From positions 1 through 40,165 of the forward strand of contig JAIRYT010000011.1 in the NCBI GenBank assembly GCA_031267675.1: 40,165 nucleotides of DNA. Reading direction: 5' to 3'. Below are positions 3,086 to 39,973 of this stretch, piece after piece (the first letter of the stretch is position 1; every line of letters begins with the position of its first letter). This DNA comes from Treponema sp. Its GTDB lineage: Bacteria > Spirochaetota > Spirochaetia > Treponematales > Breznakiellaceae. The notes under the pieces are model-generated. The model was given only the letters and a program-made list of their open reading frames with translations. It made no database searches and had not been told where the DNA came from. The position numbers were made by a program, and so were the translations under genes.

Positions 3086-3104
3086 CGACGTGGGGCCCGC
3101 GTCA

Positions 3105-4551: not shown

Positions 4552-4580
4552 ATGTTTTTTCTTTTCATTATTTTTTTATC

Positions 4581-5150: not shown

Positions 5151-5172
5151 GGGCAAACAGTCCTGTTAGGCG
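5151..5172. repeat. 22-bp site 'GGGCAAAC-AGTCCT-GTTAGGCG' (inter-cassette repeat family, copy B) within a GC-rich ~200-bp element
   Basis: Same arm-centre-arm geometry as copy A; contains GTTAGGC (=GTTRRRY) and, on the other strand, GCCTAAC (=RYYYAAC). Confidence 0.7.
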
Positions 5173-5239
5173 AAAGGGTTAAAATCTATTGCAAAAATAG
5201 TATACATATAGTATAAAGGACAAAGGGGAATTTTAATCA

Positions 5240-6286
5240 ATGTATGATATTGCCATTATTGGGTTAGGGCCCGCCGGTGCTACATTAGCAAGATTATTGG
5301 ATAAAAAGTACAATGTAATTGCGATAGATCGAAAAAATTCCAAATTTAATAAATGTTGCGGGGGATTATTATCGCCGGATGCGCAAAAAATACTTGCCCA
5401 GTTTGACATCTGCCTGCCAAAAGACGTTTTGGTAAACCCGCAAATATTTTCTGTAAAAACGATTGATTTTGATAATAATATTGTTAAATATTATCAAAGG
5501 TTTTATATGAACATGAACAGGAAAAAGTTTGATAATTTTCTGATTTCGTTAATTTCGAATAATATAGAGATTTGCAGTAATAGCATTTGTGAAGAAATAG
5601 AAAAAGAAAATGATATATACTGTTTTACAATAAAAACAAATGGAATAAAACGAAAAGAACGGGCTAAAATTATAATTGGCGCAGATGGCGCAAATTCTAT
5701 AGTCAGGAATACATTCTATAAAAAGAATAAAATTAATAGATATGTATCCATTCAAGAATGGTATAAAGACGATATAAATTCACCTTTTTATTCCTGTATT
5801 TTTGATAAAGAGATAACAGATTCATATTGCTGGACAATATCAAAGGACAATTGTTTTATAATCGGGGGAGCATTTCCAATGAAAAATAGCAGTAAAAAAT
5901 TTGAAAAATTAAAGGAAAAAATAAAAAATACCGGCATAAATTTTGAAAAATTGATAAAACGGGAAGGTTGTTTGGTCAATCTGAATAAAGGACTTATGAG
6001 TACGTGTACGGGAAAAAACGGGGCCTATTTAACAGGAGAGGCGGCGGGAATGATTAGTCCAAGTTCTTTGGAAGGAATTAGTTATTCCATGGAGAGCGCA
6101 AAAATATTGGCAGAAATAATAAATGAAAGTTTAACGAATATAGGACAAAAATATTTCTTGAGGACATTGGGAATTAGAATGAAATTAATTTTAAAAATAT
6201 TCAAAATGCCGTTTATGTATAACAGGTATTTGAGGAAAATAGTTATGATAAGCGGAATAAAAACAATAAAACGCCCCTTCGTATAA
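5240..6286 (+). CDS. FAD-dependent oxidoreductase (geranylgeranyl-reductase/monooxygenase-like)
   Basis: N-terminal 'YDIAIIGLGPAGATLA' Rossmann GxGxxG; 'GADGANSIVR' FAD-binding block; AT-rich. Confidence 0.75.
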   Translation: MYDIAIIGLGPAGATLARLLDKKYNVIAIDRKNSKFNKCCGGLLSPDAQKILAQFDICLPKDVLVNPQIFSVKTIDFDNNIVKYYQRFYMNMNRKKFDNFLISLISNNIEICSNSICEEIEKENDIYCFTIKTNGIKRKERAKIIIGADGANSIVRNTFYKKNKINRYVSIQEWYKDDINSPFYSCIFDKEITDSYCWTISKDNCFIIGGAFPMKNSSKKFEKLKEKIKNTGINFEKLIKREGCLVNLNKGLMSTCTGKNGAYLTGEAAGMISPSSLEGISYSMESAKILAEIINESLTNIGQKYFLRTLGIRMKLILKIFKMPFMYNRYLRKIVMISGIKTIKRPFV

Positions 6287-6308
6287 ACAGTCAGGAACGT
6301 TATATGCG
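6283..6308. repeat. Short variant of the inter-cassette motif 'ATAAACAGTCAGGAACGTTATATGCG', overlapping the stop of the oxidoreductase gene
   Basis: Contains both 'ATAAACAGTC' (type-1-like) and 'AGGAACGTTAT' (type-2-like) halves; followed by hairpin 'tgtcgttaaataacgaca' at ~6326-6345. Confidence 0.5.
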
Positions 6309-6325
6309 GTATCCGCCTGCCCATT

Positions 6326-7243
6326 TTACCTGTCGTTAAATAACGACAATTCATTCTGTCTTTTTTTAGAATTATATTTTACTTCTACCTGCTTCTCAAA
6401 AGACTCTAAAGACTCCCGGTGATATTTTAAAAACCATTCTTTATGATTATTTAAATAGGTATTACGAATATCATCATCATTAAGATCGTTTGGAACACGC
6501 TCCATTCTTTCATCAATACTATCAAATCCCATAAATGGTTCTGCGAGTCTATTTTTTGTTAACTCGATATAATCAGGATTTAACTCTATACCTATACAAT
6601 TTCTATTTAATTGCTGGCATGCCCTTAAAGTCGTTCCACTTCCAGAAAAAGGATCAACAATCAAATCGCCCTCTTTACTTGAAGCTAAAACCATACGTTC
6701 AATTAAGCCTTCTGGTTTTTGGGTGGGATGATTTTGCCGGTTCGCGTTACAATAATGTACATGCGAAAACATCCAAACGTCCCCGGGATTGGCTCCGCGC
6801 ATATTATTTATCGATCGGTAATATTTTTGGGGAACTCTGATGTTATCCAAATAGAAATTAAAGCGTTTGGACTTCGTAAACATTAAAATATCATCGTGCC
6901 TCGGTGAAAACCCCTTTGTTTTACCCAAGCCCTGCGTATAATGCCATGTAATCCAGCTATTAAAAATAAAATGGTATTCTCGTTCTAAAATGGTATACAG
7001 ATAGGATATAAAACGCACTCCCATAAATATATATATAGAACCGGTGTTTTTTAATACGCGATGAGACTCTTTTAACCAATTGCGCGAAAATACCAAATAC
7101 TCGTCAAATTCTTTTGAATCATTATTATTACCGTAATCCTTTCCAAGATTATAAGGAGGATCTGCGATAATAACATCTACTGTATTTGCATCAATATCTT
7201 TTAGACGCTGTATAGCATCGCCTCGCAGTATATTGAGTTTCAT
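6326..7243 (-). CDS. Beta-class N6-adenine (or N4-cytosine) DNA methyltransferase of a type II R-M system
   Basis: Motif IV 'IIADPPYN' near the N-terminus and motif I 'VDPFSGSGTT' near the C-terminus (beta-class order); start overlaps the upstream gene. Confidence 0.85.
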   Translation of the reverse strand: MKLNILRGDAIQRLKDIDANTVDVIIADPPYNLGKDYGNNNDSKEFDEYLVFSRNWLKESHRVLKNTGSIYIFMGVRFISYLYTILEREYHFIFNSWITWHYTQGLGKTKGFSPRHDDILMFTKSKRFNFYLDNIRVPQKYYRSINNMRGANPGDVWMFSHVHYCNANRQNHPTQKPEGLIERMVLASSKEGDLIVDPFSGSGTTLRACQQLNRNCIGIELNPDYIELTKNRLAEPFMGFDSIDERMERVPNDLNDDDIRNTYLNNHKEWFLKYHRESLESFEKQVEVKYNSKKRQNELSLFNDR

Positions 7244-8025
7244 TATTCATCCTTTATCCAATGATTTTGTTTTGCGTAGCGCAGCCATTCCGAAAAACCC
7301 TTGCGCGAGGCGATACATTTTTCATCTAATAATTGACAAAACTCCCATGCGGTTCTTATTTCGCGGGAAACATAGTGAATATCCCTTATTTGCAATTGCC
7401 CGCTGCCCAATGCGGGATTATAACTAATATCATTTTTACCAAGAAATTTTAAATCATATGCATTAAAATCAACTACTTCCATTACACCAAACATCATATT
7501 AGATGCATTGTCTCTATGGCTATAGACCTTATGCTTAATAGATAAAATAATAAACAAATAATCCGGGTCTTTTACATATTCTGTGCGTATCCGTACAAAC
7601 GATGTAATATTAGGAGATTTTCCACTGCCGTCAATATCGTTGCTTGTTGCTTTAACATCAACAAAACCCGTAACAGAACTTTGTCGCTTTCGCTGCCGCT
7701 TAAATTGCAGAATAATATCCGCCATATTAAGGCGTTCGCCTGCTTCAACATTAATGAGTTGATATTTATTATTTTTATCTTCCAAGATGTCGTTGAATAT
7801 TTCAAATGCCCATGCTTCAACAAATGGCCCTGCTATTTTATTGATATTTTCCATAGGCAATCCAAGTTTTAAATTAGTGTTGATAACGATTTTATTTTTA
7901 TAATTCCGTATTGAATCATTAACAATAGCCTCAATTTGCCCAACAACAAAGTTAGAGCAATCCTGGTAATCTTCAGATTCAGCGGGTGTCTTAAAATCAA
8001 GTGTCGAATATTCCATATTTGGCAT
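7243..8025 (-). CDS. Putative type II restriction endonuclease partnered with the adjacent methyltransferase
   Basis: 260 aa ORF immediately upstream of and 1-nt overlapping the MTase on the same strand; candidate PD-(D/E/S)xK-like segment 'DPDYLFIILSIKHK'. No family assignment possible by eye. Confidence 0.45.
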   Translation of the reverse strand: MPNMEYSTLDFKTPAESEDYQDCSNFVVGQIEAIVNDSIRNYKNKIVINTNLKLGLPMENINKIAGPFVEAWAFEIFNDILEDKNNKYQLINVEAGERLNMADIILQFKRQRKRQSSVTGFVDVKATSNDIDGSGKSPNITSFVRIRTEYVKDPDYLFIILSIKHKVYSHRDNASNMMFGVMEVVDFNAYDLKFLGKNDISYNPALGSGQLQIRDIHYVSREIRTAWEFCQLLDEKCIASRKGFSEWLRYAKQNHWIKDE

Positions 8026-8163
8026 AAAATCAACCTCTTTGCATGATATTTTATAACATCAAAAAAAATCAAGAGGGTTCCGTATGGTCCGCTTTGATAA
8101 AAAACGCCGACTGCGGAATGGGGCATCGGAACACCGGCGTTTTAATTACGCGAAGCGCAATCT

Positions 8164-8180
8164 TGCCGGAACGTTATTCT
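8164..8180. repeat. 'GCCGGAACGTTATTCTG' type-2 variant of the inter-cassette motif at the island-core boundary
   Basis: Matches 'ccggaacgttatgtg' at 39134-39148 and 'caggaacgttatatg' at 6290-6304. Confidence 0.5.
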
Positions 8181-8917
8181 GCAAGAAATATTACAGAAAT
8201 TTGGGTAGAAATTTCCAATTCACCCGTTGGCAGTATTGAACCGGGAACATCCTCCGCTTCTCTACCACCGGCAAAACCCCTTGCGGCATAAAGTACCATA
8301 TCGCGCGGAGAAATTTGCCGGGCTCCGTCTTCGGAAATATTCAGGACTTTAACAATTTTTAATCCGGAAAGTTCCGCGTATTGCTCCGCTTTCGCCAGGG
8401 CTTTTTGATACGCCGCCTCTCTGGACTTTGCCAGTAATTCCGTATCATCTTTAATTCCAAAATGAATTTGATTTAACCTGACATTGTCCAGTTGTGTAAT
8501 TTTGTCCAATATTTCCGGCGCTTTTTCAACATTTACGCCTATAGTATCAACGGAAAACACTATGGTTTGTTCAACTTTTTGACCGGTCAAAACCCTTCTA
8601 TTGCCTCTGTATTCATATTCAGAATTAAACCGTAAAGATGCTGTTCGTATATTTTTATCCTCAATTCCGGCTTCATTCAATATGTCCAATAATTGTTTTG
8701 CAATCTTGTTTACTTCAATTTGAGCCTGCCGTGTTGTTCGCGCGACATTACTCAGGGAAACGCTCATTTGAACCATGTCGGGCTGTGCCAATATTGTACC
8801 AGTTCCGGTAACAGTAATACTGCTTTGCCCATAAACATTTGTTGTATTAAAGCTCAATAATACAAGAAAAGCAAACAGGATAAAAGCTGCATGCAGAGTA
8901 CCTTTATTTTTCTTCAT
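8174..8917 (-). CDS. SIMPL-domain (DUF541/BP26-like) periplasmic protein
   Basis: Signal peptide; 'SITVTGTGTILAQPDMVQMSVSL' resembles the SIMPL/YggE family N-terminal block. Confidence 0.7.
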   Translation of the reverse strand: MKKNKGTLHAAFILFAFLVLLSFNTTNVYGQSSITVTGTGTILAQPDMVQMSVSLSNVARTTRQAQIEVNKIAKQLLDILNEAGIEDKNIRTASLRFNSEYEYRGNRRVLTGQKVEQTIVFSVDTIGVNVEKAPEILDKITQLDNVRLNQIHFGIKDDTELLAKSREAAYQKALAKAEQYAELSGLKIVKVLNISEDGARQISPRDMVLYAARGFAGGREAEDVPGSILPTGELEISTQISVIFLAE

Positions 8918-10599: not shown

Positions 10600-11198
10600 T
10601 TTTCTTCCTCCGTTAAGCGCGCGACAGCCGCCGTGTGCGAATCGATAATTCCGGTAATTCGTACCTTTTCAAATGAATCTATCATTTTTCCGCTGCCGGA
10701 AACAGCGTTGGTTTCGTACTTTGTTCCGTTCACGGAAAACGAAATTTTTCCTGTTCCCGAAGGGGGAATTTGCAGGTAGACTTCGGCGATGGTTCCGACC
10801 GCCTGGGATATATTGAATTCTTCGCCCGGACTTTTTAGTTTCATGGCAAAATAAAACAGCAGCGCCGTAATAACAAGTACAAAGAAGCCGGAAACCCCCG
10901 CTATGGCGAGCGCCGCGGGAAAGGGAAGCCCGTACTGCAGATAAGCGGCAAGCCCCGCCCAGCCAAACATGGCGATAAACCCGGTAATGGAATTGAGCGA
11001 GAGCAGTTTGAACGCGCCGTCAGACGCCTCCAATCCATCATGACCGGAATCGTGTACATCACCATGCACATCGTGCGCATCCATGCTCCCGTCGTGCACA
11101 TCGTCCGCGCCAAAGCCGCCGATGATAAACATCGCCACCCGCAGGAGAAAAAATACCGACCCGAAAATCGCCGCTCCCCAAAAAACAAGCATAGACAC
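10596..11198 (-). CDS. NfeD-family membrane protein (flotillin partner)
   Basis: Membrane N-terminus plus C-terminal OB-like domain; overlaps the flotillin start; conserved NfeD-flotillin gene order; His-rich stretch 'HDVHGDVHDSGHDG'. Confidence 0.6.
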   Translation of the reverse strand: MSMLVFWGAAIFGSVFFLLRVAMFIIGGFGADDVHDGSMDAHDVHGDVHDSGHDGLEASDGAFKLLSLNSITGFIAMFGWAGLAAYLQYGLPFPAALAIAGVSGFFVLVITALLFYFAMKLKSPGEEFNISQAVGTIAEVYLQIPPSGTGKISFSVNGTKYETNAVSGSGKMIDSFEKVRITGIIDSHTAAVARLTEEEK

Positions 11199-11675: not shown

Positions 11676-12814
11676 TGCGGATTATTCCCATTGCGAGCGG
11701 AAAGGGCGGCGTCGGCAAATCCCTGGTAGCGGCTAATCTGGCGGTAGCGTTTGCCCAGGCGGGGCAGCGTGTTGTACTGGCCGACCTTGACCTTGGCGCG
11801 TCGAACCTTCACCTGGTACTTGGGTTTCATTCGCCGTTAAAGGGAATTGGCAGTTTTTTGGCCAACACCAAATCGGATTTTATGAACGTGGTAAACAAAA
11901 CCGATATTCGAGGCCTGCGCTTTATTCCCGGCGATCAGGAAATGCCCGGACTTGCCAACCTTAAAAGCTTTCAGCGCAACGCCCTGATACGCCGCCTGCT
12001 TGCGCTGGAAGCGGATACGGACATTCTTGTTCTTGACCTTGGCGCGGGAACACATCAGTCAATACTTGATTTCTTTCTGCTTTCGGGGCAGGGAATTGTG
12101 GTAAGTTCTCCGGCGGTAACAGCCACCCTTAACGCGTATGTATTTTTAAAAAATACGGTCTTTCGCCTTATGTATACCGTGTTTAAAAAAGGAACAGAGG
12201 CGTTTACCGTTTTGGAAAATATACGCAAAGACAATAAACATTTATACATACCGCAGATTCTTAAAGAAATCGAGCAGGTCGATCCCGAGGCGCACAAAAA
12301 ATTTGTTGACGCGTCAAAACACTTTCACCCCCGGCTTGTCATGAACATGATCGCCAATCCAAAAGACGCCGATGTCGCCATGAAGATACGCCGTTCATGC
12401 GAAGAATATTTGGATATTATGCTGGAACACCTGGGAATAATGTACCATGATACGATTCAGGATACGGCGCTTTCTTCGCGGCTTCCGGTGCTTTTGTACA
12501 AGCCCAATTCGGTAATCGCGCAGTCCATCTATCGCATTGCCGACAAGATCATGCAGGATGATGAAGAAACATTTACCCTTACCAAAGAAGATATTGACGA
12601 CAGCTTTCAGGAGGCGGGCCTTGAAGCGGAAATTGATTTTGAGACAAAAATGGATTATGTAGAAGAACTGCTTCATACCGGGGCGCTTTCGCAGGGGGAT
12701 TTGCTTGAAACCGTAAAGAGCCAGCAGTTTGAATTAGGTAAATTAAAAAAAGAGAATAATTTTCTTAAACATAAACTTGCCCAGGCAATTTCGCGGGATT
12801 TAAACCAGGAGTGA
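11675..12814 (+). CDS. MinD/ParA-family P-loop ATPase (FlhG/MinD-like) with a C-terminal coiled-coil extension
   Basis: 'MRIIPIASGKGGVGKS' deviant Walker A. The ORF track starts upstream at 11606, but the Walker motif places the start at 11675. Confidence 0.75.
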   Translation: MRIIPIASGKGGVGKSLVAANLAVAFAQAGQRVVLADLDLGASNLHLVLGFHSPLKGIGSFLANTKSDFMNVVNKTDIRGLRFIPGDQEMPGLANLKSFQRNALIRRLLALEADTDILVLDLGAGTHQSILDFFLLSGQGIVVSSPAVTATLNAYVFLKNTVFRLMYTVFKKGTEAFTVLENIRKDNKHLYIPQILKEIEQVDPEAHKKFVDASKHFHPRLVMNMIANPKDADVAMKIRRSCEEYLDIMLEHLGIMYHDTIQDTALSSRLPVLLYKPNSVIAQSIYRIADKIMQDDEETFTLTKEDIDDSFQEAGLEAEIDFETKMDYVEELLHTGALSQGDLLETVKSQQFELGKLKKENNFLKHKLAQAISRDLNQE

Positions 12815-12836
12815 CCTAAAGGTCAATCCTCGGCCT
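12808..12836. repeat. 28-nt box 'GGAGTGACCTAAAGGTCAATCCTCGGCC' containing the stop codon of the MinD-like gene; related to the xseA-xseB tandem repeat
   Basis: Near-identical to 'GGAGCGACCTAAAGGTCGATCC(C/T)CGCC' at 32240, 32335 and 32425. Confidence 0.7.
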
Positions 12837-12872
12837 GCCGCCTGAAATATGTTGATATAAAACGGAGGAGCA

Positions 12873-31054: not shown

Positions 31055-32251
31055 GTGAGCCGCCAGAGTTATACCGTTTTTGAAATCACCTCGCTCATTC
31101 AGTCGCAGCTGGAAAACGCTTTTCCTTCTGTTATTGTAGAGGGGGAGCTTTCAAACTTGAGGCCGTCAAGCACCGGACATCTTTATTTTTCGCTCAAAGA
31201 CAGCCGCGCAAAAATAGACGCGGTACTGTTTAAAAGCCGGCTGCCCTTTCTTGGCTTTCAGCCAAAAGACGGCATGCTGGTTCGGACGCGGGGACGTATT
31301 TCGGTGTACGCCCTGCGGGGAAACTACCAGCTTATTGCCGACGACCTTGAACTTGCCGGCGCGGGCGATATTCTTGCCATGCTGGAAGAACGCAAACGCC
31401 TTCTTGCCGCCGAAGGACTTTTTGATGAAGGGCGAAAAAAGCCAATTCCGCGCTTTCCCGAAACTGTCGGCATTGTCAGTTCACCAACCGGCGCGGCGGT
31501 GCAGGATATTCTTACCATTCTGCAAAGGCGCGCCCGGGGCATACATGTTGTAATTTTGGGCGCTCCGGTTCAGGGCGCGGAGGCGGCGGGAATTATCGCC
31601 GCGCGGATTAAACAGGCCAACCAGTGGCATCTTGCCGATGTCCTTATTGTCGGGCGCGGCGGCGGTTCGCTGGAAGATCTTCTTCCCTTTTCCGAAGAAC
31701 AGGTGGTGCGCGCAATTGCGGAATCCGCGATTCCCGTGGTAAGCGCCGTAGGCCACGAAATTGACAACGCGCTTTCTGATTTGGCCGCCGATCTCCGCGC
31801 GCCTACGCCTTCGGCCGCCGCAGAACTGGTAAGCGAAAAACGCGCGGAAACATTTGACCGCATTGTCGAAATAAGAAACGAAATGGTTTCCTGCCTTGAG
31901 CGGCGCATAGAACGCGTCCGTCTTTTGGCAAAACCATTTTGCGCGGAAGATTTGGAATACCGCATTAGAACCATACTACAGCCGCGCCTGATACGTCTTG
32001 ATGACGCAAAAGACGCCCTGCTCACCGGCCTTAAAACAATTACCGCTTCCCTAAGCCGCCGCCTTGAGCTGGCAAAGACCGGGCTTGAAGCGGGAAACCC
32101 CCGGGCCATTCTGGAGCGGGGATTTTCGGTAGTGGTAAACGAAGCAAGCGGAAAAACGCTGCGTACCACGAACGACTGTACGGAAGGCGACAGGCTGCGA
32201 ATCAGGCTTCTTGACGGATCTGTGTACGCGGTCACGGAGGGAGCGACCTAA
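31055..32251 (+). CDS. xseA: Exodeoxyribonuclease VII large subunit
   Basis: OB-fold N-terminus 'SVIVEGELSNLRPSSTGHLYFSLKD' and 'GRGGGSLEDL' block; GTG start. Confidence 0.85.
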   Translation: MSRQSYTVFEITSLIQSQLENAFPSVIVEGELSNLRPSSTGHLYFSLKDSRAKIDAVLFKSRLPFLGFQPKDGMLVRTRGRISVYALRGNYQLIADDLELAGAGDILAMLEERKRLLAAEGLFDEGRKKPIPRFPETVGIVSSPTGAAVQDILTILQRRARGIHVVILGAPVQGAEAAGIIAARIKQANQWHLADVLIVGRGGGSLEDLLPFSEEQVVRAIAESAIPVVSAVGHEIDNALSDLAADLRAPTPSAAAELVSEKRAETFDRIVEIRNEMVSCLERRIERVRLLAKPFCAEDLEYRIRTILQPRLIRLDDAKDALLTGLKTITASLSRRLELAKTGLEAGNPRAILERGFSVVVNEASGKTLRTTNDCTEGDRLRIRLLDGSVYAVTEGAT

Positions 32252-32497
32252 AGGTCGATCCCCGCCAAGCCGCTATGCGGCTTGCGAATTTGTTCGCTGG
32301 TGCAGCCTGCCGGTAAACCGGACGGGCTTGCAGGGAGCGACCTAAAGGTCGATCCTCGCCAAGCCGCTGCCTTGCGAATTTATCTGCTGGCGCAGCCTTG
32401 CCGGTAAACCGGACAGGCTTGCGGGGAGCGGCCTAAAGATCGATCCCCGGCTATGCTATGCCGCGCATAGTTGCGAATTTATCGGCTGGGAGGGTAC
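32237..32497. repeat. Three tandem copies (96, 90 and ~72 bp) of a hairpin-rich GC repeat between xseA and xseB
   Basis: Units begin with 'GGGAGCGACCTAAAGGTCGATCC'. The first unit contains the xseA stop; the last contains the xseB RBS. Internal hairpins 'caagccgc-tat-gcggcttg' and 'ccggtaaaccgg'. Confidence 0.85.
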
Positions 32498-32731: not shown

Positions 32732-34504
32732 ATGGCAATGATACGAATATTAAAAAGCGAGGAAGCAAAAAAAATTGCCGCCGGAGAGGTCATTGACCGT
32801 CCGGCCGCGCTGGTGCGGGAATTTATCGACAACGCAATTGACTCGGGGGCGTCGTCAATAGAAGTTTCCATTGCCAACGGGGGAAGCAGCAAGGTCGAAG
32901 TAATTGACAACGGCTCCGGCATGGACAAAACCGATCTTGAACTTTGCATCCTGACCCACGCGACAAGTAAAATTGAAACCCTTGACGATTTATCCAAAAG
33001 CCATACCCTGGGTTTTCGCGGCGAAGCGCTGGCTGCGGCAGCCGCCGTATCAACGCTGGAAATACTTTCCAGCGTTGACGGCCGCGAAGCATACCTCCTT
33101 ACCGCCGCGGACGGTAAAAGCAAAATTATTCAAAGCCGCCGCGTGCGCGGAACCAGCATACGCGCGTTTGGCCTGTTTGACGCCATACCCGCCCGCAAAC
33201 GCTTTCTTAAACGCGAAGCAAGCGAAGCGGCAATCTGTAAACAAATTTTTATGGAAAAGGCGCTGGCGTTTCCCTCGATAAATTTTCGTTTTATACAGGA
33301 CGGCAAATTAAAAATAAACGCGCTTCCCCATACAGAAGAAAACATGGCTGTTACAAAACGCTTTGGCGAACTTATTCTTTCAAACCAGGCGTTTCTTCAC
33401 GAAATCCATGCGGCGGGCAGCGGCTTTACCGTATGCATAGTCACCGGAGGCCCCGAGCTGTTCCGGCAGGATCGCAGGGGGCAGTATATTTTTGCCAACA
33501 GGCGGCGCATTCAGGATTTTTCGCTTATGCAGGCGCTGGAATACGGCCTTGCCGGATTTTTCCCCAACGGCTCGCACGCCATTGGCGCGGTTTTTGTAGA
33601 TGTTGATCCCGCGCTCGCCGATTTTAACATTCATCCGGCAAAACGGGAGGTACGCTTTGCCTGCGCGTCCGAAATCCATCATGCGATAACATCGGCGCTC
33701 CGCGATTATACCAGACGCAGCGGGCTTGCGATAAGTTCTACCACTGCGGACGAGGCGCTTGAAAACAGCCCGGCCTTTGCCTTTGACGGGGACCGGCACA
33801 AATCGGGTGAATATGGAGATACGCGCGACCGCCGCGAGGCGCCCGGTTCAAAGGCAGGCGCCGCCGCGCTGGCGGCGCTGCTGGAACGTAAAGATGAATT
33901 CGCGCCCTCACACGCTTTATACGCGGGCGAAACAGAAGCGGAATATAAAACCGGGGAAAGCGTAACCCTTGCCGGCCGCGCGTTTAATTTATTTATTATT
34001 GTTCAAAAGGAAGAACGCCTTTTTTTAATTGATCAGCACGCCGCCCACGAACGCCTGCTTTACAATCATTTTTTGTCAAAACCCATCACCGCGCAGGAAT
34101 TACTCGTTCCCATTCCGTTTGTCACCGAAAGCAAAGAAGACGATGATTTTTTATCCCTTAAAAAAGAAGAATTAAAGCAATTGGGAATTCTGCTTAAAAA
34201 TGAGGGAAACGGAAACTGGCTCATTGACGCGCTCCCCGCCGGCTGGGGGCAGGGAGACACCGTACAGGAGATCCTCGCGCTGCGAAACGCCGGCGGCAAC
34301 ATGACCGAACACTGGGCGGCTACACTCGCCTGCAAGGCGGCAATCAAAGACGGCGGTTACCTTGACGACAGCGCCGCCCTTGCCCTTGCGAAAGAAGCCC
34401 TTGCCCTGCAAAATGACGGCTCACGGCCGCGCTGCCCCCACGGTCGTCCGCTGTGGATGGAACTTACCCGCGACGATCTATTCCGCGCCGTACGCAGAAC
34501 TTGA
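32732..34504 (+). CDS. mutL: DNA mismatch repair protein MutL
   Basis: GHKL ATPase N-terminus 'IAAGEVIDRPAALVREFIDNAIDSGA'; 590 aa. Confidence 0.9.
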   Translation: MAMIRILKSEEAKKIAAGEVIDRPAALVREFIDNAIDSGASSIEVSIANGGSSKVEVIDNGSGMDKTDLELCILTHATSKIETLDDLSKSHTLGFRGEALAAAAAVSTLEILSSVDGREAYLLTAADGKSKIIQSRRVRGTSIRAFGLFDAIPARKRFLKREASEAAICKQIFMEKALAFPSINFRFIQDGKLKINALPHTEENMAVTKRFGELILSNQAFLHEIHAAGSGFTVCIVTGGPELFRQDRRGQYIFANRRRIQDFSLMQALEYGLAGFFPNGSHAIGAVFVDVDPALADFNIHPAKREVRFACASEIHHAITSALRDYTRRSGLAISSTTADEALENSPAFAFDGDRHKSGEYGDTRDRREAPGSKAGAAALAALLERKDEFAPSHALYAGETEAEYKTGESVTLAGRAFNLFIIVQKEERLFLIDQHAAHERLLYNHFLSKPITAQELLVPIPFVTESKEDDDFLSLKKEELKQLGILLKNEGNGNWLIDALPAGWGQGDTVQEILALRNAGGNMTEHWAATLACKAAIKDGGYLDDSAALALAKEALALQNDGSRPRCPHGRPLWMELTRDDLFRAVRRT

Positions 34505-34518
34505 CAGCGCCGGAAAAA
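34431..34518. repeat. Direct repeat copy 1 (mutL 3' end + TTGACA-18-TAAAAT promoter), partner at 35302-35384
   Basis: ~93% identity to 35302-35384, with a 3-bp indel. Confidence 0.85.
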
Positions 34519-34572
34519 GCATGGTAAAATTATAAAAGCGGTAAAAATTCGCGCTATCAAAAAAGAGAGGTC

Positions 34573-34896
34573 ATGGACAAAGCGGTACAAGCGGAACTGG
34601 ACATGCTCAAGGACATTATTGTAAAAACTGTTCCCGTTGAACAAATTCACCTCTTTGGTTCTTATGCCCAAGGGGTCCCACACAGCGATTCAGATTTAGA
34701 TTTATATATTGTTTTGAAAGATAATGCCGAAATGCGGGATATTGACGCTTCTTTAAAAATATACCGCGCAATTGGCGGCAAAAAAAATATGCCGGTAGAT
34801 ATTCTAGTTAGTAAACAAAGCGCCTTTACGCACAGAAAAAACAATCCTACTCTTGAACAAAAAATAGTCAAAGAGGGAATACTGGTGTATGGCTGA
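34573..34896 (+). CDS. Minimal nucleotidyltransferase (MNT) antitoxin of a HEPN/MNT pair
   Basis: 'GSYAQGVPHSDSDLDL' GS...DxD nucleotidyltransferase motif; 8-nt overlap with the downstream HEPN gene; AT-rich. Confidence 0.75.
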   Translation: MDKAVQAELDMLKDIIVKTVPVEQIHLFGSYAQGVPHSDSDLDLYIVLKDNAEMRDIDASLKIYRAIGGKKNMPVDILVSKQSAFTHRKNNPTLEQKIVKEGILVYG

Positions 34897-35341
34897 TATC
34901 GCCCTTGTCAGGCAATGGATTTTTCTTGCGGAAGATGATCTGCGGGTGGCTCAACATCTGGAGCAGACTTTGCGGCCTACACCTTTTGAATTGATATGCT
35001 TCCATTGTCAACAGGCAGCGGAAAAATACCTGAAAAGCTGCCTTGAATTTCATGATGAAATCCCGCCAAAGACCCATGACCTGATTGAACTTAATAACCG
35101 GTGTAAAAAATATAGTGCAGCCTTTGGTGATTTGGCGGAAGCCTGCCAGGCATTAACTGCGTATGGTGTTCAACCACGGTATACCTATGGAATGGAGCTG
35201 GAATATGGAGACACGCTAAAAGCCTTGCAATGTGCAGAAAAGGTAAAAATGTTTTTGCAAAAGGAAGCTCCTGAGTTGTTTAAAAATGACCCTCTAAAGG
35301 AGCTGCCCCCACGGTCGTCCGTGGATGGAACTTACCCGTGA
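34889..35341 (+). CDS. HEPN-domain toxin partner
   Basis: 'AEDDLRVAQHLEQ' ... 'CQQAAEKYLK' ... 'PKTHDL' HEPN blocks; the C-terminal ~15 codons read into the duplicated repeat. Confidence 0.7.
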   Translation: MADIALVRQWIFLAEDDLRVAQHLEQTLRPTPFELICFHCQQAAEKYLKSCLEFHDEIPPKTHDLIELNNRCKKYSAAFGDLAEACQALTAYGVQPRYTYGMELEYGDTLKALQCAEKVKMFLQKEAPELFKNDPLKELPPRSSVDGTYP

Positions 35342-35384
35342 CGATCTGTTCCGCGCCGTACAGAACTTGACAGCGCCGGAAAAA
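35302..35384. repeat. Direct repeat copy 2 (duplicated mutL 3' end + TTGACA-18-TATCAT promoter)
   Basis: See copy 1. Confidence 0.85.
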
Positions 35385-35429
35385 TGGGTGTATCATAGGG
35401 TGCCGGAGATTTGTAAAAGAGGGTGTTTT

Positions 35430-35900
35430 ATGTATCGATTTGTAAAACGTTCTTTCGTTGCGGCGGTGATACTGGTAGCGCTGGTTTTGGTTTTGGGGTC
35501 CTGTGTTTCCTATCCGTTAAATTCGAGAAGCTTTAGCCATAACAGACTTTATTGGGATAAAAACATGCCTGTGGATCAGAGCGTTGAATTATGTTTAATG
35601 CAGGGGCTAACCGCAACCAGTTATAACGGTATACCGGTGAATTGGGGGTTTAAGCCCAATATTTTTCTGCCGACTGGGCAAACCGCTCTTGCTCTGGACC
35701 TTAATTACTGGCTGGGACAGACCAACGTCAAGGGTGATGCTGTTTTTGTCTGGAATTTTAAAGCTGGTGACAGGTTTATCTTGCACGGATGGCGAAGAGA
35801 TGGTAAACTGGGAATTCTATTATGGAACATGGATGTGAAAAAAGAACTGGCCGAGTATGATTTCTTCCCGTTTCCAGAATCAAAAATGATTTTAGAATAG
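35430..35900 (+). CDS. Lipoprotein, paralog family member A1
   Basis: 'MYRFVKRSF...LGSC' lipobox; ~60% identical to the 36433-36900 product. Start placed at the internal ATG; the ORF track's 5' extension (35325) is repeat-derived. Confidence 0.55.
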   Translation: MYRFVKRSFVAAVILVALVLVLGSCVSYPLNSRSFSHNRLYWDKNMPVDQSVELCLMQGLTATSYNGIPVNWGFKPNIFLPTGQTALALDLNYWLGQTNVKGDAVFVWNFKAGDRFILHGWRRDGKLGILLWNMDVKKELAEYDFFPFPESKMILE

Positions 35901-35909
35901 GAGGCCAAA

Positions 35910-36395
35910 ATGAAGAATCGAAAATGTATGTGGGCAAGTGTTGTTCTGTGTGCGGCATTGTTTGCCGGATGTGCCGGTGTTCCCGGTAGGTTTGCCTTTG
36001 ATGAAACGGTACCTGCGGAACAAAGCACTCTGGTCGTTTTTGGCACCGGAATAAGGGTCCTGGAGTACAACGGAATCGACATTAGAACCGGCTGGTATCC
36101 AAACGACAAATGGCGGGTTAATAGAATTACTTTGCCGATTGGCGAAACTACAATACTTTTTAATTACTTTAACACAATTAACATGGGAAATACTGCTTAC
36201 TATGCTCATTCAGAAGATATTACACTTAAGTTTACCTTTGAGGCCGGGAAGGAATACACGGTAGCCAGTTACACAAGGAGGAAAGGCCTCTTTACAAAAG
36301 AATACGGTGTGGCGGTTTGGGAACTTGCTTCACAGACTGGTAGTCCCGCCACTGTTGAAAATGCGGTAAAATTCTGGAAGTTTGGAGAAGTCTGA
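35910..36395 (+). CDS. Lipoprotein, paralog family member B1
   Basis: Lipobox 'LFAGC'; shares 'VLEYNG(I/V)D', 'NRITLP.G.TT' and 'FEAGKEYTVA.Y' blocks with the 36910-37428 product. Confidence 0.55.
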   Translation: MKNRKCMWASVVLCAALFAGCAGVPGRFAFDETVPAEQSTLVVFGTGIRVLEYNGIDIRTGWYPNDKWRVNRITLPIGETTILFNYFNTINMGNTAYYAHSEDITLKFTFEAGKEYTVASYTRRKGLFTKEYGVAVWELASQTGSPATVENAVKFWKFGEV

Positions 36396-36432
36396 CACTA
36401 TCCTTCAATGATTCACAAAAAGGGGGCGTTTT

Positions 36433-36900
36433 ATGCATCGATTCGTAAAAAGATCTTTCGTTATTGCGGCGGTGATACTGGCGGCGATGGTTTTGGGGTC
36501 CTGCTATTCCTATCCCATAAATGTTGACAGATTGACAAGCAATAAACAGTACTGGGATAACGATTTGCCCAGGGAACAAAGCGTTGAACTATATATTTTA
36601 TATGGATTAAAACCGACCAGCTATAACGGAGTCGAGGTGAATTGGGGAGCAAAACCAGATGTCTTTTTGCCGCCAGGGCGAGCTGTCCTTACCCTGGATT
36701 TGAACTTTACCTATTACTATACAAATTACAAGGGCAATAATGTATTTGTCTGGGATTTCAAAGCGGGCGACAGATATATGCTCTATGGATGGGAACGAGA
36801 TGGTAAACCGGGAGTCATGCTGTTTGATATGGATGTAAAGAAAAACGAGGAAGATCAATATTTTTTTCCATTTCCGGAATCAAAAATAATTTTAGAATAG
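36433..36900 (+). CDS. Lipoprotein, paralog family member A2
   Basis: 'MHRFVKRSF...LGSC'; paralog of A1. Confidence 0.55.
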   Translation: MHRFVKRSFVIAAVILAAMVLGSCYSYPINVDRLTSNKQYWDNDLPREQSVELYILYGLKPTSYNGVEVNWGAKPDVFLPPGRAVLTLDLNFTYYYTNYKGNNVFVWDFKAGDRYMLYGWERDGKPGVMLFDMDVKKNEEDQYFFPFPESKIILE

Positions 36901-36909
36901 GGGAAAAAG

Positions 36910-37428
36910 ATGTCAAGAAAAAAAGCCGTTTGGGCAATGCTTTTTGTTTGCGCCGTGTTTTTACTTTTTGGATGCGAGACAATATCCAGATTGTCGACAG
37001 CGGAGGATATTACCGTTGACGATACGGCCGCCGAAAAAAGCGCGCTGGTTATTTTTGGTCCGGAAGTATATGTACTTGAGTATAATGGCGTTGATGTCGA
37101 AAAAGAATGGTATCCCCGAAAGAAAACCCGCCTAAACAGGATTACCCTGCCTGCCGGCGATACTACGCTCCGTTTTAATTTGGATTTTGAAATAAGCAGC
37201 GGTGGTATTATATACCGGTATAGACAAAAAAACGTGGAGATGCAGTACACCTTTGAGGCAGGCAAGGAATATACCGTAGCCCCTTATGGAAAAACGATCG
37301 AGCGCCGCTTCCTTACTGAAAACCATTTTGAATATGGCCTGGGTATCTGGGACAGGGCGTCGACCGATGGCACCGGATGGAGTGTTGAAACCGCGATAAA
37401 ATCCTGGAAGCTTGGGGATCACCAGTAA
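36910..37428 (+). CDS. Lipoprotein, paralog family member B2
   Basis: Lipobox 'LLFGC'; paralog of B1. Confidence 0.55.
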   Translation: MSRKKAVWAMLFVCAVFLLFGCETISRLSTAEDITVDDTAAEKSALVIFGPEVYVLEYNGVDVEKEWYPRKKTRLNRITLPAGDTTLRFNLDFEISSGGIIYRYRQKNVEMQYTFEAGKEYTVAPYGKTIERRFLTENHFEYGLGIWDRASTDGTGWSVETAIKSWKLGDHQ

Positions 37429-37480
37429 TACCCCGCTTGCCATCGTCCCGCCGCCGGATTATACTCAGAGTGTGAAGAGT

Positions 37481-38269
37481 ATGAAAGATCTGGCGCAGAT
37501 CAGGTCAAAAGGCGCCTTTATTATCGACATGGACGGTGTTATCTACCACGGTAATCAGCGGCTCCAGGGCGCGCTGGAATTTGTCCAGTGGATGGAAGAA
37601 AACAACAAGGCGTTCCTTTTTTTAACCAATTCCAGCGAGCGGTCCCCGCTTGAACTGTCGCAAAAACTTTCGCGCCTGGGCATCGAAGTCGACCCCGAAC
37701 ATTTTTATACCAGCGCGCTGGCCACGGCGGGGTTTTTGGCAACCCAGCGTCCGGGCGGTTCGGTTTATGTCATTGGCGAGCCGGGCCTTATTCAGGCGTT
37801 GTATGACCAGGGTTTTACCATGAACAACGTAAACCCCGACTATGTTATTGTCGGCGAGGGCCGGGGCTACAGCCTTGAAGCGCTGGAACGCGCCGTTAAA
37901 CTGGTGGAACAGGGCGCGCGCCTTATCGGTACAAACCCCGACGCTTCGGGCCCCATTGAGGGGGGAATTATTGTTCCCGCCTGCGGGGCGCTTGTTTCGC
38001 CCATCGAAATGGCCACCGGGAAAAAAGCTTATTTTGTGGGAAAACCAAACCCGCTTATGATGAGGCACGGCCTTCGCCGCCTTAACGCAAAACGTGAAGA
38101 AACAGCGATCATCGGCGACCGCATGGACACGGATATCCAGGCGGGTGTCGAATCCGAAATTGAAACGGTGCTCGTGCTGTCCGGCGTAACAAAACTGGAA
38201 GAAGTAGCTTCCTACCCCTACCAACCCCGCCACATCCTCGACGGCGTCTTTGAAATCGTCCCGCAGTAA
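37481..38269 (+). CDS. HAD-superfamily hydrolase, subfamily IIA (NagD-like)
   Basis: 'FIIDMDGVIY' motif I (DxDG), 'LTNSS' motif II and 'GDRMDTDI' motif IV; the ORF track begins at 37412. Confidence 0.7.
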   Translation: MKDLAQIRSKGAFIIDMDGVIYHGNQRLQGALEFVQWMEENNKAFLFLTNSSERSPLELSQKLSRLGIEVDPEHFYTSALATAGFLATQRPGGSVYVIGEPGLIQALYDQGFTMNNVNPDYVIVGEGRGYSLEALERAVKLVEQGARLIGTNPDASGPIEGGIIVPACGALVSPIEMATGKKAYFVGKPNPLMMRHGLRRLNAKREETAIIGDRMDTDIQAGVESEIETVLVLSGVTKLEEVASYPYQPRHILDGVFEIVPQ

Positions 38270-38287
38270 AGCAAAGTACCCGCCAGT

Positions 38288-38340
38288 AAGTCAAAGGCCC
38301 CCGATTGACTTCATAATATAAATGGGCTATACTTAGTATA
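38288..38340 (+). promoter_or_regulatory. mazEF promoter/operator region: inverted repeat AAGTCAA-N10-TTGACTT, -35 TTGACT, 17-nt spacer, -10 TATACT, and palindrome TATACTtAGTATA overlapping the -10
   Basis: Direct reading of 38288-38340; ATG of mazE at 38365. Confidence 0.5.
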
Positions 38341-38364
38341 TCCTATAAATCAAGGACAGAAATT

Positions 38365-38628
38365 ATGACAACAACAATTGTTAAATGGGGAAACAGCCAG
38401 GGAATACGGCTCCCAAAGGTTTTTTTACAAAATATCGATATATCTGAAAATGATATGGTTGATGTTTTGGTAGAAAATGAAGCAATTGTCATTAAAAAAG
38501 TATACGGCAAAAAGCACCGGACCACAAAAGAACGGCTTGCTGATTTCTATGGTCAGAATATAAAAAGTATTACAAAAAAACAAAAAGAAATAGATTGGGG
38601 AAAACCGGCAGGAAAAGAAGTATGGTAA
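38365..38628 (+). CDS. mazE: MazE/PemI-family antitoxin
   Basis: 'VKWGNSQGIRLPK' AbrB/MazE fold start and C-terminal 'IDWGKPAGKEVW'. Confidence 0.8.
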   Translation: MTTTIVKWGNSQGIRLPKVFLQNIDISENDMVDVLVENEAIVIKKVYGKKHRTTKERLADFYGQNIKSITKKQKEIDWGKPAGKEVW

Positions 38629-38954
38629 AACAGGGCGATATAATCTGGCTTGATTTTGATCCACAAACAGGTCGTGAACAACGCGGCAGACGGCCTGCTT
38701 TGGTTGTAAGTAATAAAAGTTTTAACAGCTTTTCGAAATTGGCTATTGTTTGCCCGATAACAAATAGAGACAAAGATCATCCGTTTCATATAAAGTTAGA
38801 TGGAAAAACAAAAACATCCGGAGTTATTCTTTGTGATCAGGCAAGGACCCTTGACATTAATGCCCGTAATTTTGAATATATTGAAACTATTCCTGAAGAA
38901 ATATTATTGGATGTTATTGATATAGTAAACGGATTTATTGAGATAGAAAAATAA
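38622..38954 (+). CDS. mazF: MazF/PemK-family endoribonuclease toxin
   Basis: 'GDIIWLDFDPQTGREQRGRRPALVVS' MazF signature; ATG overlaps the mazE stop. The ORF track begins 27 nt upstream. Confidence 0.8.
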   Translation: MVKQGDIIWLDFDPQTGREQRGRRPALVVSNKSFNSFSKLAIVCPITNRDKDHPFHIKLDGKTKTSGVILCDQARTLDINARNFEYIETIPEEILLDVIDIVNGFIEIEK

Positions 38955-39202: not shown

Positions 39203-39973
39203 ATGAAATATCTGGTTAAACTAATATTTGAATTACTAATATTATTAGTTTTTGTGGCATTTACAATATTAATTCATTATGTTATTAATGAAGCACTTTC
39301 ATTGTTTAGTTTTTTCCTTATTTTTCTCACAATTTATTCTGCTTATAGCTGTTTTATGATAATATTTTTGAGAAAAAGGAAAAAATATATACTAAATATA
39401 ATAATTGGAATAATTCAATTTATTATAATAAGCATCATGCTGACGTTAATCATTTCATGTTATATTTGGTTCAATCGGGATGTTAAATTATTACAAGTTA
39501 CTAACTTAATCGAATATGATTTTGGACTTGTATTTTTTACGATGTTGTTAAAATTATTATTTTTCTCATTTATTATTGTTCAAATAATTAATACTAAAAA
39601 ATCATTTTTCATAAATAAATACATATTCATCAGGTTTTTTCCGTTAAAAATAATATTTTTCTTTTTTCTTATTTTTTTAACTCCTGGATGGGAAGGAGTA
39701 TGCCCCTGGAATATTTTGGAAGATACTGTGTATTCAGAAAATTTTAATATTTATAATATCGATAAAATTAAAATTGATATGACAAGAACAGAAATAATCG
39801 ATCTTATTGGCGACCCATTAACAAAATACAATTTTCAAGATAAAGAACATTGGGAAAGTTGGACAAGAGATGGAAAAAGTAAAGTCGGAGATTACGCATG
39901 GTTTGGGTTACATATACAATTTGATGACAATAATAAAGTTAAAAAAATATCTAGTGAATGGAATTACGATTGA
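39203..39973 (+). CDS. AT-rich polytopic membrane protein, unknown function (C-terminal soluble SmpA/OmlA-like segment possible)
   Basis: 256 aa, ~6 TM helices, very low GC. Confidence 0.4.
   Translation: MKYLVKLIFELLILLVFVAFTILIHYVINEALSLFSFFLIFLTIYSAYSCFMIIFLRKRKKYILNIIIGIIQFIIISIMLTLIISCYIWFNRDVKLLQVTNLIEYDFGLVFFTMLLKLLFFSFIIVQIINTKKSFFINKYIFIRFFPLKIIFFFFLIFLTPGWEGVCPWNILEDTVYSENFNIYNIDKIKIDMTRTEIIDLIGDPLTKYNFQDKEHWESWTRDGKSKVGDYAWFGLHIQFDDNNKVKKISSEWNYD

Follow-up and report, generated by a model that had tools for sequence, protein, structure and literature searches.

A duplicated mutL end brackets an MNT-HEPN gene pair in a Treponema contig: a probable recombination scar in a variable islet

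We describe the DNA that follows mutL in a contig of 40,165 nucleotides from the metagenome-assembled genome (MAG) of a termite-gut Treponema sp., the whole of which was analysed and is referred to here as the window. Downstream of mutL, a pair of genes predicted to form a toxin-antitoxin (TA) module lies between two copies of an 88-nt direct repeat and is followed by an array of lipoprotein genes. The features of the locus are as follows.

32732..34504, + strand: mutL, intact, with the Pfam domains HATPase_c_3, DNA_mis_repair and MutL_C
34431..34518, + strand: repeat copy 1, made of 74 nt of the functional mutL 3′ end including the stop codon and 14 nt of intergenic DNA with TTGACA
34501..34530, + strand: promoter-like site P1, TTGACA (34501-34506), 18-nt spacer, TAAAAT (34525-34530), 11/12 consensus matches, TG-extended
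34519..35301, + strand: unique inter-repeat segment of 783 nt, holding a candidate −10 box, a leader, the MNT gene and HEPN codons 1-138
34573..34896, + strand: MNT, minimal nucleotidyltransferase, predicted antitoxin of 107 aa (PF18765, 1.5e-13; PF01909, 2.8e-10)
34889..35341, + strand: HEPN-domain protein, predicted toxin of 150 aa (PF05168, 1.8e-20, residues 7-123)
35302..35384, + strand: repeat copy 2, a mutL 3′-end relic with the duplicated TTGACA box
35367..35396, + strand: promoter-like site P2, TTGACA (35367-35372), 18-nt spacer, TATCAT (35391-35396), 11/12 consensus matches
from 35385, + strand: TGGGTGTATCAT, the DNA directly after repeat copy 2
35430..37428, + strand: lipoprotein array, two tandem copies of a two-gene unit (repeat families D1, D2, D4 and D6), with genes A1 (35430-35900), B1 (35910-36395), A2 (36433-36900) and B2 (36910-37428), all +

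The mutL open reading frame (ORF) encodes 590 aa and matches the deposited MutL of the Treponema sp. MAG, of 588 aa, at 100%. Its last 25 codons lie inside repeat copy 1, its stop codon occupies 34502-34504, and its C-terminus, ...RCPHGRPLWMELTRDDLFRAVRRT*, has the length and pattern seen in the closest relatives (L164 and L165). The repeat pair had been reported in an earlier note on this DNA, and a repeat search, MAFFT and blastn-short confirm it as an 88-column alignment of 34431-34518 with 35302-35384, at 92% identity with gaps counted (blastn E=6e-27). The whole window has no further copy, none being found by blastn-short at the far end of the lipoprotein array, and the edges of the two are sharp, identity being at background left of 34431/35302 and right of 34518/35384. 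The copies differ by two substitutions (cgc/cgt and cta/ctg), each at a third codon position of the mutL frame, and by two deletions in copy 2, of CTG (a Leu codon) and of GC, the latter shifting the frame four codons ahead of the old mutL stop; exact runs common to both copies reach at most 24 nt. Copy 1 corresponds to the MutL C-terminus of L164 and L165 and copy 2 departs from it by both deletions, the loss of a Leu codon and of 2 nt marking copy 2 as a relic in decay. Nine third-position states are common to both copies and differ from L164 and L165, which indicates that the duplicated DNA is that of this lineage and not a foreign attachment site. As outgroups, the same two relatives assign one substitution to each copy, a pattern that, together with the deletions in copy 2, would fit duplication in situ followed by neutral decay of one copy. 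The synonymous substitutions had suggested two once-functional mutL ends, an idea weakened by this assignment, as one change per copy is what in-situ decay predicts. In keeping with a homology-driven insertion, the duplicated DNA is native to the resident locus and the intact mutL continues unbroken into one of the copies.

The MNT carries the motif FGSYAQGVPHSDSDLDL, which conforms to the hG[GS]x9-13Dx[DE] pattern of minimal nucleotidyltransferases, matches the PADLOC PDC-S09 models and, among PDB sequences, gives weak matches to MntA (5yep), 1wot and HI0073 (1no5). Its gene overlaps that of the HEPN protein by 8 nt, the HEPN being adjacent in the same operon and preceded by the MNT, an order also seen in the homologous loci L161-L163 and L130. 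Domains and operon layout bear out the overlapping MNT/HEPN pair described previously, and the further observation that the HEPN ORF ends within the second repeat in another frame holds as well, its codons 139-150 (LPPRSSVDGTYP) and stop codon coming from copy 2, one base off the mutL frame. Most HEPN homologues are 125-145 aa long and end at query positions 128-143. An alignment of 120 homologues identifies EIICFHCQQAAEKYLK, KTHDL and RYP as conserved motifs; the Rx4-6H RNase motif is absent from the window HEPN, which lacks an Arg at a distance of 4-6 residues ahead of H63, the conserved His of its KTHDL, and has R96 in RYT; any Rx4-6H string occurs in 24 of the 120 homologues. The protein belongs to a PF05168 subfamily without the canonical Rx4-6H, and the word toxin is therefore used here as a prediction. 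The nearest HEPN homologue elsewhere is 55% identical and no near-identical MNT-HEPN cassette was found elsewhere, while the closest cassettes have no leader or trailer DNA in common beyond the coding regions. The loci with the closest HEPN homologues (L161, L162 and L163) were considered as analogues of the window and rejected, since they do not adjoin mutL.

P1 and P2, candidate promoters by consensus match, are the two best promoter-like sites between 34000 and 38500 in a consensus scan. The TTGACA of P1 shares bases with the mutL stop codon and is part of the repeat, the edge of which falls within the spacer and leaves TAAAAT outside; P2 precedes the lipoprotein array, and its TATCAT is likewise beyond the repeat. 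The duplicated promoter claimed earlier is thus reduced to a duplicated −35 box, each unit having its own −10. No terminator-like structure is predicted in the repeat.

Within the lipoprotein array the repeat families D1, D2, D4 and D6 are spaced at ~1000 nt, A1 and A2 are 58% identical, B1 and B2 42%, and the encoded proteins have no Pfam matches. Homologous A-B pairs elsewhere occupy unrelated loci. The GC content of the array is 0.41-0.46, that of the inter-repeat segment 0.414 and that of mutL 0.54, so that the insert may be called AT-rich, as it had been, relative to mutL but not relative to the array or to the spread of the contig, where 783-nt windows over the remainder have a mean GC of 0.485 (sd 0.078) and the insert, at 0.41, falls within 1 sd. 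Because TA module and array are equally low in GC, composition is silent on which arrived last, and low GC does not mark the TA module as the foreign part.

For comparison, 160 related mutL loci were gathered by MutL-based scans of genome and metagenome collections (best identity 60%), and a search of 5.8 billion proteins gave best non-self MutL matches of 69% and 66%, on the L164 and L165 contigs. Exact-protein look-ups for MutL, MNT and HEPN found no match on record, and the 90%-identity clusters of MutL and HEPN have no member besides this contig. The arrangement of the window is absent from 160/160 related loci and from the two closest relatives (MutL 66-69%), and a second copy of the mutL coding end was found downstream in 0/146; the earlier note had named an ancient duplication, fixed in all relatives, as the alternative to an insertion, and these loci do not bear that alternative out. 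Relatives without the arrangement are too distant to count as empty sites, the closest MutL being 69% identical; the L165 contig stops 60 nt past mutL, and in L164 the neighbour after mutL differs, being a c22-type gene as in Breznakiella. The order gcvP-xseA-xseB-mutL is conserved in ~160 relatives, none of which has the window's downstream genes near mutL.

In distant relatives synteny breaks off directly 3′ of mutL, and this DNA is a hot spot for insertions, some alleles being filled and others empty. Within one clade, 7 loci have mutL directly against a convergent gene, and in others 0.5-6 kb lie between the two. A 768-nt insert with an HEPN relic sits exactly between the two stop codons in L125, the site being empty in L036, and in L152 (empty in L153) the 3′ end of the neighbouring gene is present a second time, as a 119-nt duplicate of 98% identity flanking a 2.4-kb insert, the same topology as in the window; L130 has an MNT and an HEPN pseudogene 317 nt past mutL. 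Insert boundaries differ in every case among L125, L130, L152 and the window, as expected of illegitimate and not of site-specific joins. Only two HEPN-family matches occur in 1.88 Mb of related mutL loci, both less than 1 kb downstream of mutL, for which the chance probability is roughly p ~0.006. The lipoprotein array is the other occupant of this variable islet.

We propose a model of homology-driven accretion, in which the TA module entered the variable islet 3′ of mutL with no dedicated recombinase, and to which we give about an even chance of being correct. The module would have been added between mutL and the lipoprotein operon either by Campbell-type integration, a single RecA-type crossover with a small fragment that had circularised and bore the mutL end and the TA genes, or by homology-facilitated illegitimate recombination (HFIR), with homologous exchange on one side only, in mutL, and an illegitimate join on the other. 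Either route would duplicate the homologous segment, that is, the last 74 nt of mutL and 14 nt with the −35 box, and such a duplication would explain why mutL stays intact through copy 1 and the lipoprotein operon retains its −35 box through copy 2. Copy 1 would still be under selection as copy 2 decays, the relic supplying the last 12 codons and stop of the HEPN gene and giving rise, in the deposited annotation, to a probably spurious extension at the N-terminus of the first lipoprotein. Expression of the TA pair would come from a hybrid promoter, formed by the −35 overlapping the mutL stop and the module's own −10, and alternatively or additionally from read-through out of mutL, which is conceivable because no terminator is predicted. 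The MNT is predicted to neutralise its HEPN partner, as in other minimal-nucleotidyltransferase/HEPN modules, and a module that is addictive in this predicted manner would help to fix itself and its neighbours. The locus is a real and fairly ordinary recombination scar in a variable spot and no new kind of mobile element; of the site-specific or homology-mediated acquisition put forward in the earlier note, the homology-mediated part fits best and the site-specific part finds no support.

The dimensions of the repeat bear on this model. At 88 nt the duplication far exceeds any transposase target duplication and falls slightly below the 109-950 bp of homologous-segment duplications seen in single-crossover integration in E. 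coli (PMC3240628). With exact runs of no more than 24 nt it is near the lower limit for RecA-dependent exchange, although when the event took place the copies probably did not yet differ. No microhomology is visible, as read from the window side alone, at the presumed illegitimate junction 35301|35302. A good −10 at an equal 18-nt spacing in both units, outside the repeat, would arise by chance in roughly a few per cent of cases; it is unpredicted by a random join and hints either that some junctions were selected over others or that the point of recombination lay within a promoter spacer.

The same spacing, with the repeat edge inside the promoter spacer, would suit site-specific integration, in which the 88-nt segment or its core is an attachment site and the 871-nt unit an integrase-less mini-element, akin to cis-mobilisable elements or left over from a larger island, that brought a replacement mutL end and was moved by a recombinase encoded elsewhere. 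The topology is the classic one, with direct repeats of 88 nt bracketing the cargo, the 3′ end of the target restored and the displaced end at the far side, and HEPN modules do recur beside mutL. Against this, a domain scan of 40 ORFs across the 40-kb contig (its main ORFs and the small ORFs adjoining the feature) found no integrase, transposase or recombinase domain, in the insert, as had been noted, or elsewhere among those ORFs. Nor do attachment boundaries recur, given that a second mutL coding end is present in none of the 146 loci and that boundaries vary among the filled alleles; the repeat is free of notable secondary structure and inverted repeats, both copies derive from this lineage's own mutL, the nearest HEPN remains at 55%, and viral contigs gave neither an exact match of the repeat end nor an HEPN relative. 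Site-specific action, as suggested, and mobility at the present day are accordingly left without support, and we regard this explanation as quite unlikely. A bolder version, in which the mutL stop/−35 region of termite-gut treponemes is a dedicated docking site where cassettes are swapped by a recombinase encoded elsewhere, is a long shot, as is its corollary that crossover takes place in the promoter spacer and that cassettes (TA pairs, lipoprotein operons) bring a −10 and borrow the −35 of the mutL stop; were it true, a mismatch-repair gene would anchor a cassette system of integron-like kind with its integrase in trans. A small cargo flanked by direct repeats also recalls a transposon target-site duplication or an integron gene cassette, and TA cassettes are common in chromosomal integrons. 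We give next to no credence to either, as transposons and insertion sequences would bring a transposase, inverted repeats and a target duplication of 2-15 bp, far below 88 nt, and the insert has neither transposase nor detectable terminal inverted repeats, while the repeat is conserved coding sequence in which no attC-like fold was found (copy 1 folding z=+0.5 and +0.1) and no intI occurs among the scanned ORFs. The window also contains no Rfam RNAs.

The event could have had either polarity, with insertion of the TA module or with the lipoprotein array, led by a mutL end, being appended. In the reverse order MNT-HEPN would be the resident after mutL, and conspecific DNA consisting of a mutL end, −35 box and lipoprotein array would have been added after HEPN through homology at its right-hand end and an illegitimate join at 35301|35302, copy 2 being the donor's mutL end. 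We consider this rather unlikely, though several observations speak for it: the array is as AT-rich as the TA module and, with homologues at unrelated loci elsewhere, is itself accessory; MNT-HEPN remnants adjoin mutL in two other lineages (L130 and L125); and the join falls at the natural end of HEPN. On the other side, the cargo of a single-crossover or att-type event is the DNA between the repeats, here the TA module, no homologous right-hand anchor is identifiable, and the two deletions in copy 2 suit a displaced relic as well as a donor variant. That the tandem arrangement exists in no single cell, the contig being a chimera of co-occurring strains, seems very improbable. The window is a whole MAG contig, its exact proteins are found on this one contig only, and strain-level chimeras do form at variable islets; but a de Bruijn assembler, at the final k normally used, cannot collapse or loop copies that are set apart by indels and agree exactly over no more than 24 nt at a stretch, reads must exist for each of the two novel junctions (from repeat into TA and from the HEPN end into repeat), and the HEPN reading frame stays open across the junction.

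Under homology-driven accretion the locus can be compared with several known systems. Thermus TT1695/TT1696 (1wot/1ufb) and Haemophilus HI0073/HI0074 (1no5), which are the best or near-best, though weak (E=0.004-0.16), sequence matches of solved structure, are likewise small adjacent genes with a G-S...D-x-D MNT first and a four-helix HEPN second; the window HEPN differs from theirs in its 12-residue tail encoded by the mutL relic. In intact gene, cargo and displaced gene-end fragment, the window has the topology of integrative elements that replace the 3′ end of their target gene, such as e14 and phage 21 in E. coli icd and the integrase-less, cis-mobilisable elements of streptococci. Such elements have a known integrase of their own or rely on one, and their boundaries are identical from one occurrence to the next, whereas no integrase (40 ORFs) and no recurrent boundaries (146 loci) were found for the window. 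Gene order and domain classes also agree with the type VII HepT/MntA systems of Shewanella, Aphanizomenon and Legionella (PMC7641770, PMC11586414), the MntA structure 5yep being the top solved-structure match of the window MNT. In those systems a nucleotidyltransferase antitoxin chemically neutralises an HEPN RNase, which for the strict type VII sense means AMPylation of the toxin by the MNT, a logic that we propose, as a prediction, for the window pair also, but HepT proteins carry the Rx4-6H RNase motif (PMC7641770, PMC11586414) that the window HEPN family lacks, so the pair departs from the strict type VII motif and HepT-type membership is not established. As regards the recombination itself, Campbell-type integration (PMC3240628) similarly leaves the homologous chromosomal segment as direct duplicates on the two sides of the insert, and the model of HFIR with C-terminal displacement drawn from T6SS and Rhs arrays (PMC5361080) adds a module beside a conserved anchor, the old 3′ end being displaced as an orphan relic. 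In the window, by contrast, a housekeeping gene for repair serves as anchor and a TA pair as cargo, the duplicated stretch is shorter than the Campbell-type ones measured, and the process is one we infer, route and direction included, from one sequence, a single MAG contig, and not one observed.

If homology-driven accretion is the correct reading, the locus is a clean and datable case of small addictive modules and surface-protein operons accumulating beside a housekeeping gene with no need for mobile-element machinery, and one in which gene-end relics distort annotation, through the borrowed tail of HEPN and the N-terminal extension of a lipoprotein from mutL sequence. The finding leaves knowledge of TA systems or recombination unchanged. 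The filled and empty alleles 3′ of mutL do make a usable hot spot for the study of gene flux in uncultured termite-gut treponemes, a group with almost no genetics.

Some apparent insertions at related loci proved to be of another nature. Between mutL and c4, its convergent neighbour, many of them come down to the presence or absence of a single conserved lipoprotein gene of ~545 aa and are not mobile DNA, and the small ORFs of the L152 insert, considered as a GNAT-type TA pair, are without Pfam support. The 50-nt perfect repeats around an IS200-like Y1 transposase after mutL in L150 were rejected as a third case of long duplication; they involve no target duplication and are part of a ~130-nt palindromic, REP/RAYT-like element dispersed in that locus.

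The arrangement downstream of mutL is best read as the scar of a homology-mediated acquisition, of the Campbell type or of the homology-facilitated illegitimate recombination (HFIR) type, at a variable islet. The features concerned are the following.

32732-34504, plus strand, mutL
34431-34518, repeat copy 1
34573-34896, plus strand, MNT gene
34889-35341, plus strand, HEPN gene
35302-35384, repeat copy 2
35430-37428, plus strand, lipoprotein array (genes A1, B1, A2, B2)

Three methods (find_repeats, MAFFT and blastn-short) agree on a segment in two copies, 34431-34518 and 35302-35384, aligning over 88 columns at 92% identity with gaps counted (E=6e-27), which bears out the claim of the earlier note that the 3' end of mutL is duplicated around the insert. 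The repeat edges are abrupt on both sides and no third copy lies within the window. Copy 1 comprises the last 74 nt of mutL, with its stop codon at 34502-34504, and the following 14 nt, and its end has the length and pattern of the two closest MutL proteins, those of loci L165 (69% identity) and L164 (66%), which read ...RCPHGRPLWMELSRxDLFxAVRRT*. Copy 2 has substitutions at two third positions and has lost CTG (a Leu codon) and GC; with the Leu that follows CPHGRP missing and the frame shifted four codons ahead of the stop, it is a relic. Nine synonymous states common to the copies, unlike both of these outgroups, make the copies each other's closest relatives, and with a single private substitution in each the duplicated DNA is, judged by its sequence, the mutL end of this very lineage, fairly recently copied and with one copy in decay. 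An assembly chimera is unlikely, since indels distinguish the copies and no exact run they share exceeds 24 nt, which requires both junctions to be present in reads.

Between the copies lie 783 nt holding two genes that overlap by 8 nt, encoding an MNT protein of 107 aa (PF18765, 1.5e-13; PF01909, 2.8e-10; motif FGS...DLDL) and a HEPN protein of 150 aa (PF05168, 1.8e-20). Domains, gene order and overlap identify a minimal-nucleotidyltransferase/HEPN module in the broad sense, as had been proposed. The closest solved structures by sequence are weak matches, 1ufb and 1wol (Thermus, Sulfolobus) for HEPN and 5yep (MntA), 1wot and 1no5 for MNT. The HEPN frame does end inside the second repeat in a frame other than that of mutL, copy 2 supplying codons 139-150 and the stop, one base off the mutL frame; since HEPN homologues, mostly 125-145 aa long, usually end at the equivalent of residues 128-143, the junction falls at the natural end of the HEPN gene and the domain is intact. 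Conserved among 120 aligned HEPN homologues are EIICFHCQQAAEKYLK, KTHDL and RYP, and Rx4-6H, the defining motif of HepT-type RNase toxins (PMC7641770, PMC11586414), is absent. This is our reason for filing the pair in the broad sense; a function as a type VII toxin-antitoxin (TA) system (HepT/MntA) (PMC7641770, PMC11586414) is a prediction only.

The insert is AT-rich relative to mutL (GC 0.41 versus 0.54), and in that sense its earlier description holds, but not as a compositional signature of the TA pair, for the lipoprotein array past copy 2 is equally AT-rich (GC 0.41-0.46) and 0.41 lies less than 1 sd from the mean of windows of 783 nt taken elsewhere on the contig. The conspicuous parts are the repeat copies, at GC 0.60 each, fragments of core DNA of which one is isolated in an AT-rich accessory stretch from 34519 to about 37400.

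The window is a complete contig of a metagenome-assembled Treponema sp. of the termite-gut clade, and its HEPN, MutL and lipoprotein ORFs are 100% identical to deposited proteins. The closest genomes are MAGs of Treponema and Spirochaetaceae from termite guts, together with Breznakiella homolactica; no collection searched contained same-species or closely related sequence. The order gcvP-xseA-xseB-mutL is kept in about 160 loci, whereas the downstream genes of the window (MNT, HEPN, lipoproteins, HAD hydrolase, MazEF) occur near mutL in no relative but L130 and those of the relatives are absent from the window, and the mutL stop codon is thus a synteny breakpoint. L164, the closest relative, has a downstream gene of the Breznakiella type. 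One large clade has a conserved gene, c4, convergent with mutL; the two stop codons overlap (TTAA) in seven loci and stand 0.5-6 kb apart in others. L125 carries a 768-nt AT-rich insert (11755-12522) exactly between these overlapping stops; the insert contains a degenerate minus-strand HEPN gene with a broken frame and has no flanking duplication. L036 (position 6901) is its empty counterpart, with flanks 81% identical. The 2.4-kb insert of L152 codes for a repeat-rich DUF6242-like lipoprotein and lies between the copies of a 119-nt direct repeat (8083-8200 and 10625-10743, 98% identical) that duplicates the 3' end of c4, and L153 and L157 are precise empty sites relative to it; its topology is that of the window, an intact gene, then cargo, then a displaced gene-end fragment. 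In L130 (3923-7132) an MNT gene, its product 58% identical to the window MNT, and an internally deleted HEPN gene lie 317 nt past mutL, with DUF3791/DUF3990 genes and an IS110 transposase beyond them. Only two HEPN-family matches exist in 1.88 Mb of related loci, both less than 1 kb downstream of mutL (p ~0.006 under a uniform null, a rough figure, variable regions attracting such modules anyway). Insert boundaries differ in each filled case, and none of 146 related loci carries the mutL coding end twice.

Long duplications of resident sequence around an insert are the signature of single-crossover integration, for which flanking duplications of 109-950 bp have been measured in E. coli (PMC3240628), or of one-sided homologous recombination with an illegitimate join, the process proposed to explain effector-immunity arrays and Rhs 'C-terminal displacement', in which former 3' ends are displaced downstream and orphaned (PMC5361080). 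A circular molecule with a short homologous segment could have integrated by a single crossover, or homologous recombination on one side could have been coupled to an illegitimate join on the other; both routes fit the window structure without a dedicated recombinase and would explain the varying boundaries among loci. The duplication would have an advantage, since it leaves intact both the conserved CPHGRP-containing MutL C-terminus and the lipoprotein operon's -35 box. We favour the TA pair as the newcomer, since the repeats enclose it as cargo; a less favoured possibility is the reverse polarity, a fragment of mutL end plus lipoprotein imported behind a resident TA pair. A recombination point within the promoter spacer has a small probability, its attraction being a good -10 at equal 18-nt spacing just outside the repeat in both units. 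The repeat includes TTGACA, which overlaps the stop codon of mutL, but not the -10-like hexamer 18 nt after it (TAAAAT for copy 1, TATCAT for copy 2), and the supposed duplication of a whole promoter is not supported. These are the two best-scoring promoter-like sites in 34000-38500, and no terminator-like site is predicted between mutL, the TA pair and the lipoprotein genes. Neither route fully accounts for the matching spacing, which may stem from selection among possible junctions or from a pair of alternative alleles that each evolved a promoter using this -35 box.

The data give no sign of an element that moves itself or is mobile at present. A scan of 40 ORFs across the 40,165-nt window found no domain of an integrase, recombinase or transposase, in line with the reported lack of an integrase, and there are no terminal inverted repeats in the insert, no unusual fold of the repeat and no matches in viral contigs. 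Among 5.8 billion proteins no HEPN homologue is closer than 55% identity, and the best MNT match found has 68%; the nearest cassettes (L161, L162) sit between Hen1/PNKP-like and metallophosphatase genes, not adjoining mutL, and comparison of leader and trailer DNA of the closest cassettes gave no similarity. Of the site-specific or homology-mediated acquisition suggested earlier, the homology-mediated form is retained as the best reading and site-specific mobility is not supported. The MNT/HEPN pair, and the proposed duplication scar of Campbell or HFIR type at a variable islet, are both of kinds already known.

In the lipoprotein array a tandemly duplicated unit of two genes repeats about every 1003 nt (A1/A2 58%, B1/B2 42% identity). 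A search of 5.8 billion proteins gave just 11 clusters of the A family, every one from spirochaetes of termite guts, and other genomes (L166, L168) have one A-B pair followed by a trypsin-like protease at unrelated loci. The first lipoprotein is annotated (LBJ31_01080) as 191 aa, 35325-35900, from an ATG within the mutL relic (MELTRDDLFRAVQNL...); paralogue A2 and the lipobox (LGSC) indicate instead a probable true start at the ATG at 35430, giving 156 aa. Further features of the window are these.

3105-4391, minus strand, EcoRI-like adenine methyltransferase fused to a GIY-YIG/T5orf172 domain
6326-7243, minus strand, N6/N4 DNA methylase
37412-38269, HAD hydrolase, GC-normal
38365-38954, MazE/MazF (PemK) pair, GC 0.35
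39203-39973 (contig end), membrane ORF with a weak BamE-like domain, GC 0.24

The MazE/MazF pair and the membrane ORF form a second accessory AT-rich patch past the HAD hydrolase gene, and the left 8.5 kb (1-8500; GC 0.32-0.41 versus about 0.53 in the core) encodes GtrA, PMT_2 and GT2 glycosylation genes along with the two methylase genes listed. A second duplicated gene end lies between xseA and xseB, where a 91-nt unit is repeated in 2.3 tandem copies (32238-32489, 87% matches, third copy partial); the unit starts with the last codons of xseA, including its TAA stop, and has a weak 34-nt match at 12808-12841. In L150 (10305-11535) an IS200-like Y1 transposase gene directly follows mutL, bordered by hairpin ends together with copies of a palindromic element of about 130 nt, of which the same 20-kb locus has at least four further copies, a REP/RAYT-like arrangement in a termite-gut treponeme.
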